Assembly: GCA_035692005.1 (NCBI GenBank)
Contig: DASSII010000102.1
Coordinates: 135 to 64,134, forward strand
DNA: 64,000 nt
From: Candidatus Limnocylindrales bacterium
GTDB taxonomy: Bacteria; Chloroflexota; Limnocylindria; Limnocylindrales; CSP1-4
Direction of reading: 5' to 3'
A program made the position numbers and the translations under genes. The notes beneath the pieces were generated by a model. It searched no databases, was not told the origin of the DNA, and saw nothing but the letters and a program-made list of their open reading frames with translations. Positions 1 through 31,108 of the stretch are shown piece after piece. Numbering within the stretch: position 1 is the first letter of the stretch; each line of letters starts with the position of its first letter.

Positions 1-44
1 TGCGCGATGTCATCCTGCCCGATCCGGACAAGCGCGCGGGCTGA
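1..44 (+). CDS. 3' end of a gene entering from the left (...LRDVILPDPDKRAG*), product unknown
   Basis: Open frame 3-44 with GC-rich third positions, ending in TGA at 42-44; too short to identify. Confidence 0.4.
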   Translation, partial: RDVILPDPDKRAG

Positions 45-392
45 CGGGGAGCGGGGGCCCGCCGGCGTTCACCACCCGCGGCCGACCACGGCCTGACCTG
101 AGCTGAGGCCGCACGGTCTGGCCTCGCCGGCCAGATGGGCTACCTCCCCGGCCGCCGGGCCCCAACCGAGTGTCAGCCCAGACACACGTTTGCTACGAAC
201 GTGCTGCGGTCAGCGCGGTGCGTCAGCCTCAGACACACATCCGGCACAGCCGAGCGTGATCGAGTGCGGAGGATGCACGCCCTGGTCGATGGGCCGATCG
301 ATCACGAGGCCCTGTCGCGAAAACGTGTCTGGCAGTGACACTCGGGCGGCAGGGACGCCCACCCGGTCGCTGACTCCCCACGTCCCGGTCAG
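41..392. ncRNA. Candidate large structured non-coding RNA/element, family not recognised
   Basis: Nested helices seen by eye: 54-61/156-163, 78-84/149-155, 89-94/106-111, 117-123/129-135, 166-175/336-345, 178-191/321-332, 255-263/298-306; imperfect outer pairing 41-57 with 375-392; lies between convergent genes. Confidence 0.45.
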
Positions 393-410
393 GGCCTTGG
401 GGGCGAGTGG

Positions 411-1076
411 TCAGGCCTTCGCGGCCAGGGCCTCGCGGGCCTTCTCCCAGTCCGAGCGGAACTGGACGATGCCCTTGTCGGTCAGCGGGTGATGGACCAT
501 CTGCTGGAGGACCTTGAACGGCAGGGTCGCGATGTGGGCACCGGCGAGTGCCGCCTGGGTCATGTGCAGCGGGTTGCGGATGGACGCGGCAAGGACCTCC
601 GTGTCGAGCTCGTGGATGGCCACGATCTCGGACAACTCGCGGATGACGATCATGCCGTCCTGATTGATGTCATCGAGCCGCCCGACGAAGGGCGACAACA
701 GGCTCGCCCCGGCCTTGGCCGCGAGCAGGCCCTGGTTGGCCGTGAAGATCAAGGTGCAGTTGGTCTTGATGCCCTCTTCAGCGAAGCGGCTCATCGCCTC
801 GAGGCCTTCCTCGCTCATCGGCACCTTGACCACGATGTTCGGGGCAAGCTTCGCGAACGCCCGACCCTCGCGCAACATGCCCTCGACGTCCTCGGCGACG
901 ACCTCGGCGGAGACCGGCCCGCTGGTGATCGTGCAGATCTCCTTGAGGACCTCCTCGTAGGTCATCCCGCTCGTCTTGGCGAACAGGCTCGGGTTCGTGG
1001 TGACCCCGTCGAGGACGCCCCAGCGGGCGACCGTGCGGATCTCTTCGATGTCCGCAGTGTCGAGGAAGATCTTCAT
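411..1076 (-). CDS. fsa: Transaldolase / fructose-6-phosphate aldolase family (short TalC/FSA type)
   Basis: MKIFLDTA, GVTTNPS, VVKVP (Schiff-base Lys), SPFVGR, LAASIR motifs; 221 aa. Confidence 0.93.
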   Translation of the reverse strand: MKIFLDTADIEEIRTVARWGVLDGVTTNPSLFAKTSGMTYEEVLKEICTITSGPVSAEVVAEDVEGMLREGRAFAKLAPNIVVKVPMSEEGLEAMSRFAEEGIKTNCTLIFTANQGLLAAKAGASLLSPFVGRLDDINQDGMIVIRELSEIVAIHELDTEVLAASIRNPLHMTQAALAGAHIATLPFKVLQQMVHHPLTDKGIVQFRSDWEKAREALAAKA

Positions 1077-1125
1077 GGGCTCGTCTCCAATCGGTCGGGG
1101 GCGCCGATTCTACGCCCGACGGCCG

Positions 1126-3060
<1,935 letters not shown>

Positions 3061-6936: not shown

Positions 6937-9033
6937 ATGCCGAGCCGCCGACCGATGACCCCGCCCGATCTGCGTCGCGTCGTCGCGGTCGAGGAGCTGG
7001 ACCTGGGCACGGACGGCCGGACGGCGATCGTGGTGCGCCGAACGATCCGTGGCGACCGCTACGTGTCGCACCTCGTCGCGATCGATCTGACCGCCCGCCG
7101 CCGCATCCCTCGTCCGGTCACGTTGACGACAGGCACGACCCGCGACACGCGTCCTCGACTGTCGCCCGACGGCCACAGCCTCGCCTTCGTCCGCGCCGAT
7201 CCGACCGATGACGCCGCGGTGGCCGCCCTCCAGATGCTCGACATCCGCGGCCCGCGGCTGGTTCGAGCGGTGCGGCCCGGCCGCCACGGCGCCGTCGGAG
7301 AGGTTGCCTGGTCGCCGGACGGACGACGCATCGCGTTCACCGCGGAGGTCGATCCGCCGCGGTTCCTCGTCGGGCGCGTGCCGCCCATCTCGGGCCGTGG
7401 CCCGGCGACCGACACCCAGGAGCCCCTCGCCCGCCGGATCACGCGCACCGACTGGCGCTGGGACGAGGAGGGTCATCGCGACCGCTGGTCGCACCTGTTC
7501 GTCGTCGACGCTCGAGCCGGCGCTCGTCCGCGCCAGGTGACGCACGGGGACTTCGGGGTCGAGGATATCGCCTGGCACCCGGACGGACGGACGGTCGCCT
7601 TCACGACGGACCGCGGTCCCGAGCCGGACCTCCATCCGCGGACGACGATCTGGGCGGTCGACGTCGACGCGGCCCAGCCGGCGGAGGACGCCGCGGGGGC
7701 TGAGCCGTGGGAGGTGGTGGCCGCCGCCGGCTGGGCGAACCACCCGGCGTGGTCGCCCGACGGGCGCTGGATCGCGGCCGTCGGCATCCTCGAGCCGGAG
7801 CCGCTCGACGACCTGAGCCCCGGCCTGATCCTCGGCCCGGCCGACGGCTCGCGAGCGCCGATCGCCCTGGCACCGGAGCTCGATCGACCGGTCGGCAACT
7901 GGGTCGATACGGACCTCAACGGCTGGATGGTGAGCGGCCGCCACGGCCCGCTGTGGCTCGATGAGCGGACGATCGTCGCGACCATCTCCGATGGCGGTCG
8001 GTCGCATCCATGGACGTTCGACATCGACCCGCGAACGGGCCACCCACGTGGCCATCGCCGTGCGGCCGACGGCGATGCCACGACCCACACCATCGCCGTG
8101 GCACGGAACGGGGTCGCCGCCGCGCTCGGGACGATCGGCACCCGGGCGATGGAGCTGCTGACGTTCGACCCCCGGGCGCGCGACGCGTCCACGGATGACG
8201 GCTGGACCACGCGCTCCAGTCTCGGCTCGCGCTGGCAAGCCGCCTTCGAGCAGCCGACGATGCGCCTCGTCCAGGCCCCGGGCGCGGGCGGCCCGATCGA
8301 TGTCCGCATCGTCAGCCCGCACGGAGCCGGCGACGGGCCGCTGCCGACCATCGTCGATGTCCATGGCGGTCCGCTCGGTGCCTGGGCCCCCGCTCCGCAC
8401 CTCGAGGTCTTCCTGCTCGCCGCCCGCGGCTACCGGGTCATCCTTCCGAACATCCGCGGCTCGGCGACGTACGGCCGGGAGTGGATCCGGCCACAACTCG
8501 GCGATTGGGGCGGAGTCGACGCCGCCGACGTGCACGCCGCCATCGATCACGTGGTGGGCATCGGCCTGGCCGATGCCGACCGGCTGGGCGTCCTCGGCCT
8601 GAGCTATGGGGGGTTCATGGTGCATTGGCTCGTCGGCACGACCGACCGCTTCCGGGCGGCGGTGTCCGAGAACGGCGTCGCCAACCAGGTCTCGGCCTGG
8701 GCCAACTCCGACAGCGGCCCCGAGTACGACCGCGCGGCACTGATGGGCGATCCGTTCTCCCCGTCCGGTGTCGACAAGCTCTGGCGCCAGTCACCCCTGC
8801 GCAACGTGGCCAATGTGCGGACCCCGCTGCTGATGCTCCAGGCGGAGGCGGACCTGCGTTGCCCGCCCCAGGACAACGAGCAGTTCTTCATCGCGCTGCG
8901 CCACCTTGGGCGAGTCGTCGAGTACGTCCTCTATCCCGGCGAGTCGCACGTCTACGCGTCAGCGGGCCGGCCCGACCGGCGGATCGACCGGATGACCCGC
9001 CTGCTCGACTGGTTCGATCGGTACCTGCGCTGA
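6937..9033 (+). CDS. S9 family peptidase (prolyl oligopeptidase/acylaminoacyl peptidase-like) with WD40-like propeller
   Basis: SPDG/WSPDG repeats, VHGGP, GLSYGG nucleophile, DLRCP, ESH; TAGGCT -10 box 7 nt upstream of ATG. Confidence 0.92.
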   Translation: MPSRRPMTPPDLRRVVAVEELDLGTDGRTAIVVRRTIRGDRYVSHLVAIDLTARRRIPRPVTLTTGTTRDTRPRLSPDGHSLAFVRADPTDDAAVAALQMLDIRGPRLVRAVRPGRHGAVGEVAWSPDGRRIAFTAEVDPPRFLVGRVPPISGRGPATDTQEPLARRITRTDWRWDEEGHRDRWSHLFVVDARAGARPRQVTHGDFGVEDIAWHPDGRTVAFTTDRGPEPDLHPRTTIWAVDVDAAQPAEDAAGAEPWEVVAAAGWANHPAWSPDGRWIAAVGILEPEPLDDLSPGLILGPADGSRAPIALAPELDRPVGNWVDTDLNGWMVSGRHGPLWLDERTIVATISDGGRSHPWTFDIDPRTGHPRGHRRAADGDATTHTIAVARNGVAAALGTIGTRAMELLTFDPRARDASTDDGWTTRSSLGSRWQAAFEQPTMRLVQAPGAGGPIDVRIVSPHGAGDGPLPTIVDVHGGPLGAWAPAPHLEVFLLAARGYRVILPNIRGSATYGREWIRPQLGDWGGVDAADVHAAIDHVVGIGLADADRLGVLGLSYGGFMVHWLVGTTDRFRAAVSENGVANQVSAWANSDSGPEYDRAALMGDPFSPSGVDKLWRQSPLRNVANVRTPLLMLQAEADLRCPPQDNEQFFIALRHLGRVVEYVLYPGESHVYASAGRPDRRIDRMTRLLDWFDRYLR

Positions 9034-30778: not shown

Positions 30779-31108
30779 CGCTGCCCTTCAGGCATCGATC
30801 TCGTGCCCAAGGTCGCTCGCCGCGCGCCGTCGGCCGCCGCGGAGGGAGCCGCACGTCGCTTCGGTGTTCGTAGCTGCCTCGCAGGCATCGATTTGTCCTC
30901 GAAGCCGCGGGTTCCGGGCCGTACAGGGACCGAGGACGCAGATTCGATGCCTGGGCGGCATCGAATCGCTCACCGCACCGCAGGGCTCCGTCCGCGGCCA
31001 GCGTCGCTCCACCTCTCGATGCCCCGGCGGCATCGTTCCGCCTCACGTGGCCCGGGTCCGCGTCCCGCGAGCACGCATGGCCCAAGGATCGATGCCTGGG
31101 CGGCATCA
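30779..31108. repeat. REP/BIME-like cluster of five TGCC-N5-GGCATC palindromic units
   Basis: GGCATC at 30791, 30884, 30957, 31029, 31102 (spacing 93, 73, 72, 73); units 1-2 inverted relative to 3-5; between convergent genes. Confidence 0.65.

Follow-up and report, generated by a model that had tools for sequence, protein, structure and literature searches.

The window analysed here is a 64,000-nt stretch of contig C102 of a Limnocylindrales (Chloroflexota) genome, G000 (G000:C102:135-64134), and the contig begins only 134 nt upstream of it. At the left end of the window lies a plus-strand gene that is cut off by the contig end, with just its final 59 codons present on the contig, and this gene is convergent with a minus-strand fsa gene of the transaldolase / fructose-6-phosphate aldolase family. 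Both genes had been placed in this way by a preliminary description of the DNA and are confirmed; the gap between them measures 366 nt. No sigma-70-like promoter was found at the gap, and window positions 1-1200 hold no intrinsic-terminator-like site (a GC-rich stem-loop with a T/U run). The features of the locus, in window coordinates, are as follows.

1-44, plus strand: 3' end of the upstream gene (stop codon at 42-44), truncated by the contig end
45-165, no strand: "domain 1", a GC-rich, single-copy spacer outside the repeat, with a chance-level fold and without unit remnants, copies or homologues
166-171, no strand: left flank CCGAGT, complementary to 340-345
172-339, plus strand: complete repeat element composed of unit B1, unit B2 and inverted unit A' (three unit-model hits, E = 1e-8 to 9e-13)
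172-213, plus strand: unit B1, the tandem copy, with head GTCAG-CCCAGACAC (unit model, 24.7 bits; pairs with A' in the minimum-free-energy fold)
222-263, plus strand: unit B2, with head GTCAGCCTCAGACAC (unit model, 37.9 bits)
296-339, minus strand: inverted unit A', with head GTCACTGCCAGACAC on the minus strand (unit model, 33.8 bits)
340-345, no strand: right flank ACTCGG, the partner of 166-171
346-410, no strand: right-hand spacer, single-copy, running from the element to the fsa stop (unit-model and genome copy search)
411-1076, minus strand: fsa (Pfam TAL_FSA, E = 3e-60)

The gap was initially proposed to be filled by a single novel structured non-coding RNA of about 350 nt (41-392) folding into two multibranch domains. 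The helices listed for this RNA do exist as complementary segments. They include GGGGCCCG at 54-61 with CGGGCCCC at 156-163, 78-84 with 149-155 and 117-123 with 129-135 in domain 1, and the closing helix of domain 2, CCGAGTGTCA at 166-175 with TGACACTCGG at 336-345, in which 10/10 positions are complementary; segments 178-196 and 314-332 are 74% complementary, and the minimum-free-energy fold of the gap recovers most of the list. However, when folding energies are compared with those of dinucleotide shuffles, the whole 370 nt gives only a weak signal that is equal on both strands (z = -2.36 on the plus and -2.34 on the minus strand, with an equally stable fold being reached by 3/100 and 2/100 shuffles). 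Domain 1 alone (45-165, 77% GC) is at chance level (z = -0.70 and -1.08 on the two strands), whereas domain 2 alone (166-345) reaches z = -3.85 and -3.67 with 0/200 shuffles as good, and hence domain 2 alone exceeds chance. The helices of domain 1 and of the spacer are what a sequence of 77% GC yields by chance, and nothing beyond GC richness speaks for the outer helix suggested between 41-57 and 375-392. The gap has no Rfam match on either strand at a permissive threshold (best E = 2; Rfam 15), domain 1 has no other copy in the genome and no homologue in the genus or class, and the syntenic gap of two congeners is far shorter, as described below. Domain 2 is a repeat which is present at four other loci of the same genome without any domain-1-like neighbour, and its fold signal stems from its inverted-repeat architecture and not from a multibranch fold. 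A large RNA spanning the whole gap is extremely improbable on this evidence. On either side of the repeat, domain 1 and the spacer to its right consist of unremarkable GC-rich DNA present in one copy, in which a unit-model search of the window finds no unit remnants. Domain 1 was also considered as a degraded unit or second repeat and rejected, since it has neither unit remnants nor other copies.

The fallback put forward in the preliminary description, a non-autonomous mobile element, is essentially right for domain 2, but it does not extend to the whole gap and its ends differ: inverted-repeat ends had been suggested at 41-57/375-392, and the actual repeat occupies 172-339, with the GTCAG...CAGACAC heads as its termini. 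The shared motif GTCAGCCCCAGACAC and its reverse complement were first recognised when a search of the genome with the gap sequence returned incomplete copies of domain 2 from three further contigs, and a sequence-only unit model was built from an alignment of 15 arms as ~45-nt units. The building block of the family is thus a unit of ~45 nt beginning with (T/C)GTCAGCCCCAGACAC, a head of 15-16 nt that is nearly invariant as (T/C)GTCAG-NNN-CAGACAC. The unit model finds exactly 15 units in G000, with nothing else below E = 0.3, and the motif with up to two mismatches occurs in only five clusters of the genome. Extra genomic copies, which had been named as evidence against an RNA, are therefore present, but they are few. 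The five loci, each found by both motif and unit model, are given in contig coordinates.

C102:306-473: the window copy
C4:8382-8550: second locus
C36:8664-8904: third locus, with 2+2 units, adjacent to MreB
C41:8100-8217: fourth locus
C109:14512-14681: fifth locus

Other features were observed near these copies or elsewhere in the window. A tandem GC-rich minisatellite (GGCGGGTCCGCGGCGGGTC...) lies at G000:C36 about 8460-8590 (L003 1260-1390), just upstream of the 2+2-unit element. A tRNA gene is located ~600 nt from the C41 copy (L004 2228-2310) and is conserved at the orthologous G369:C19 locus (L096 938-1020). At window positions 30779-31108 there is a separate local cluster of short, TCGATGCCTGGGCGGCATCGA-like palindromes, whose sole other genomic match is 41 nt at 85% identity on contig C37; membership of this cluster in the GTCAG family was considered and discarded, as the unit model has no hit there.

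A survey of architectures covering 174 unit hits at 62 loci shows that in the typical cluster a single unit stands opposite one or several inverted ones. The length of the inner hairpin formed in this way is close to constant: among 52 hairpins from at least 12 genomes, 24 measure 118 nt, 23 measure 119 nt, three 120 nt and two 117 nt, so that 47/52 are 118-119 nt long. Additional units are found on one side, in the same orientation and with a 51-nt period. The simple 1+1 arrangement accounts for 15 of the 52 clusters, 1+2 or 2+1 for 32, and larger arrays for five; with a 118-nt hairpin plus one tandem arm at 51 nt being the commonest arrangement, the commonest form of the element is 169 nt long. 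Oriented by their duplicated side, the elements prove asymmetric: that side bears CACAGCCGTGCACG...GC.CAGA and the single side CTACGAAGCGATCGATCACGAGG..CTGT. The head is near-invariant in all three units, B1 included, apart from its central triplet, which varies (CCC, CCT, TGT, TGC) and is often mismatched between the arms, giving a 3x3 internal loop. Copies within one genome are only ~70% identical, and the number of loci per genome is 5-10, with G000 at five. In another genome, G043, a diverged unit with the head GTGTCGCTCAGACAC was observed (e.g. G043:C561, L133 1541-1660), to which the model matches only from position 5-8 on; this variant may constitute a separate subfamily.

The window copy follows the canonical plan closely. 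It measures 168 nt and not 169 because unit B1 has lost one C relative to the consensus, a 1-nt deletion, and B2 accordingly begins 50 nt after B1 in place of the 51-nt period of the family. B2 to A' (222-339) constitutes the canonical 118-nt hairpin. The domain 2 closing helix of the preliminary description corresponds to the pairing of B1 with A', and the canonical hairpin is its alternative, the pairing of B2 with A'; in folds of whole elements, B1:A' is preferred over B2:A' in 13/16 copies. The flanks at 166-171 and 340-345 extend the palindrome by 6 bp, an extension found at the window copy only. The same three-unit build recurs at other loci and in other genomes.

Units of this family were found in 15/131 genomes of the genus, with 31 in G369, 29 in G362, 15 in G000, 14 in G391 and, at the threshold used, 10 in G046. 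Across the class, sampled with 301 genomes of 57 genera, units are confined to this genus and absent from the other 56. An exact-pattern scan of 185,579 species, each represented by one genome, returned a single other genome, a MAG of Candidatus Limnocylindrales bacterium with four loci. Metagenome contigs gave seven pattern matches, four of them with the family geometry, and viral contigs gave 0 matches to the pattern. The head motif appears in none of the papers of the library searched. The element at 172-339 is a member of a previously undescribed, genus-restricted and patchily distributed family of non-coding palindromic intergenic repeats. Many of its members sit at contig ends in fragmented assemblies, and the window copy itself lies 305 nt from the end of its contig.

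Every copy lies between genes, in most cases 20-100 nt beyond a stop codon. When genes were called by codon-position GC and about 55 clusters classified, the flanking genes proved convergent at about 20 of them, co-directional at about 30 and divergent at about 5. The neighbours are housekeeping genes, including those for a quinolinate phosphoribosyltransferase-like protein, glutamate dehydrogenase, RNase Y and MreB. A constant co-orientation of the element with its upstream gene, seen in 5/5 early cases, was dropped in the larger set of co-directional contexts, in which the polarity of 10 elements agrees with the genes and that of 6 opposes them. Immediately outside the element, T stands at -1 in 27/48 copies and A at +1 in 35/48, and the arrangement is often AT|element|AT. 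Since AT is self-complementary, these flanks may be a 2-bp target duplication or merely the end of the palindrome. Longer direct repeats were not seen, and no unambiguous target-site duplication was found; a long spacer duplication at the C4 site was considered as a target duplication, and its signal was too weak for such a claim.

Comparison of orthologous loci shows that four of the five sites of G000 are empty in other genomes. Fsa is 74-94% identical across 18 congeners, and a homologue of the upstream gene adjoins fsa only in G008 and G044, where the convergent gap is ~50 nt compared with 366 nt in the window and similarity to the window extends only ~18 nt beyond the stop codon; in nine other genomes it goes no further than the fsa stop codon. 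This comparison was made without the sister genome G369, in which the contig breaks inside fsa. In the congeners with the closest Fsa (91-94% identity; L055-L062), a different minus-strand gene was observed downstream of fsa, indicating that gene order at the locus has been rearranged within the genus. The other four sites were queried across the genus with joined flanks. In many congeners the genes on either side of the C4, C36 and C41 sites lie directly or almost directly next to each other, compared with spacers of 320, 611 and 343 nt, respectively, in G000. The MreB-adjacent spacer varies from ~20 to ~1150 nt among congeners, which marks it as an insertion hot spot.

The same comparison also reveals shared copies. 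G000 and G369 carry orthologous copies at four loci, with an element identity of 79-89%, similar to that of the flanks, and these copies hence predate the split of the two species. The ~70% identity of copies within a genome excludes a recent burst. Next to RNase Y, at the site corresponding to G000:C109, a third genome (G391:C2, about 2072104-2072274; L107 1504-1674) carries the element inverted relative to those of G000 and G369, which reflects either a separate insertion into that spacer or an inversion of the element as a whole. Within a genome, tandem arms are more similar to one another than to their orthologues, as in G000:C109 (L030 1513-1682) and G369:C30 (L045 3976-4144), where the arms are near-identical within and different between species. 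This likeness points to concerted evolution, by repeated duplication or conversion of the 51-nt arm.

The position of the copies after genes raises the question of a function at the RNA level, in which the element would be a long hairpin in 3' UTRs that either stops transcription, perhaps in both directions, or protects 3' ends against exonucleases, with B1 and B2 offering alternative pairings with A'. Some REP elements have been shown to protect 3' ends against exonucleases or to stop transcription. Enrichment of the repeat between convergent genes and its depletion between divergent ones, at a short distance from stop codons, are consistent with such a role, as is the conservation of length and heads across species. 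Moreover, the near-palindrome folds alike on both strands, so its orientation need not matter. The two arms also change together. In 35 oriented hairpins, 85.7% of cells are paired in the palindromic structure and 17 pairs are changed on both sides, and the covariation score (0.228, compared with 0.184 in shuffles, 0/500 of which score as high, and well above slid controls) can be taken only as evidence of arms changing together, because the structure, a simple hairpin, was derived from the same alignment and the inheritance of subfamily variants common to all three units can mimic such a signal. RNAalifold retained the terminal helix alone. However, the element has no U-tract and no terminator-like site, nothing at gathering score was found in Rfam at 15 further loci (that is, no Rfam family at 16 loci including the window copy), and the orientation relative to the upstream gene follows no rule. 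Most congeners manage with spacers of ~50 nt at the same sites, and neither a fixed strand nor syntenic conservation, as would be expected of a structured RNA, is found. A primary role at the RNA level is unlikely, though its probability is not negligible.

The presence of filled and empty orthologous sites (at the window locus, C4, C36 and C41), together with the multiple copies, the patchy range, the two orientations at one site and the breaks in assemblies, indicates behaviour similar to that of MITEs and REPINs. As in MITEs such as Correia/NEMIS of Neisseria and Nezha of cyanobacteria, the repeats are small (118-169 nt), non-coding and dispersed between genes, carry conserved terminal inverted repeats, fold into a long hairpin and are polymorphic in presence between related genomes. 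In contrast to MITEs, they have no related autonomous insertion sequence among the genomes searched and no unambiguous target-site duplication, their copies are old and not near-identical, and one terminal arm is regularly duplicated. The search for an autonomous partner found no heads 0.7-3 kb apart, all unit hits in the 131 genomes lying in clusters of at most 400 nt; most of these genomes are MAGs, which tend to lose insertion sequences, and the near-complete G046 and G391 were included. An apparent singleton unit in G046 (L047) was set aside, as it is actually a degenerate 118-nt hairpin.

The family also resembles REPINs and REP/BIME repeats. Short extragenic units arranged as inverted doublets form hairpins of ~100-120 nt in both cases, and both show clusters or tandem duplicates, a position downstream of genes, diversity within genomes and largely vertical inheritance. 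However, REPINs are mobilised by RAYT, and no RAYT/Y1 transposase gene (PF01797) was found in 18 genomes of the genus, including the element-rich G000, G046 and G066, by a search whose positive control matched 6/14 reference genomes. The single unit of the family is not palindromic, forming no hairpin by itself in the unit alignment, and lacks the GTAG-type head of REP sequences. There are ~5 loci per genome here compared with tens to hundreds for REPINs. The units of a BIME alternate in direction, but those of a tandem array here all point the same way, at a fixed interval of 51 nt. A further comparison is with the BOX elements of Streptococcus pneumoniae, which are likewise intergenic, with a modular boxA-boxB(n)-boxC structure and predicted stable hairpins. 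The modular build and the variable number of one tandem module are alike in the two families, but sequence and host phylum are unrelated, and the repeated module here is the terminal arm itself. Without a RAYT gene, an autonomous partner or a clear target duplication, the element is placed in neither the MITE nor the REPIN family proper.

The element at 172-339 is nevertheless probably a non-autonomous palindromic repeat of MITE/REPIN type, restricted to one genus and now mostly inherited vertically. Two inverted ~45-nt units make up the 118-119-nt hairpin, one arm of which is usually duplicated in tandem at 51 nt to give the 169-nt form. Such an element would have reached the spacers between genes, at positions shortly after a stop codon, probably by transposition and mobilised in trans by an enzyme recognising the conserved heads. 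Vertical inheritance with slow decay would now predominate, and repeated rounds of duplication or conversion would keep the tandem arms of a genome similar. Counting against a mobile element are the lack of an autonomous relative and of a clear target duplication in the sets searched, the low copy number, the ~70% identity of copies within a genome and the copies shared by G000 and G369. In addition, the conserved length, heads and asymmetric internal motifs hint at some selected function, for which a purely selfish element would have no need. Together with element polarity and the position after genes, the conserved length and heads leave room for an adopted function, the main candidates being an mRNA 3'-end hairpin and a protein-binding site.

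The second of these candidates could also be the primary role of the units, which would then serve as binding sites for a host DNA-binding protein (a nucleoid-associated or topology factor, as in BIMEs), with the near-dyad head GTCWG-N3-CWGAC as the putative recognised site in a fixed 51-bp phase. It is the sequence of the head and not just its pairing that is near-invariant, even in B1, although the inner hairpin forms without that unit; the spacing is a constant 51 bp, and tandem units remain alike within a genome. However, only 15/131 congeners have the family, which rules out any core cellular function that depends on it, there are just five loci per genome, and no candidate protein was identified. 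This role is very unlikely as the main explanation of the family.

A further proposal combines geometry and recognition. Here, the 169-nt element would be a selected module of fixed geometry, recognised by a protein that is neither RAYT nor a classical transposase with matching ends. This would bring together the near-dyad head, the 118-nt hairpin, a spare arm phased at 51 nt that permits two alternative pairings, and the asymmetric conserved motifs of the apex. The proposal is decidedly unlikely in comparison with the mobile repeat of MITE/REPIN type, which remains the preferred reading.

Limnocylindria are an abundant, uncultured Chloroflexota lineage of soil and freshwater, and the family described here is the first of its kind documented in this class. 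A false lead is also removed: there is no new large RNA in the gap, where most of the dense pairing is a matter of chance at 77% GC. The build of the repeat is unusually regular, with a 118-nt hairpin and arm duplicates at 51 nt, and comes with no recognisable mobilising enzyme. Repeats of this type break MAG assemblies, and they can be used to trace how strains and species of the genus are related; the conserved head, in turn, prompts the question of which factor recognises it. Should the element prove to be a selected module, it would represent either a new REPIN-like mobilisation system or a hairpin device for 3'-end formation or termination that is specific to this genus of Limnocylindrales.
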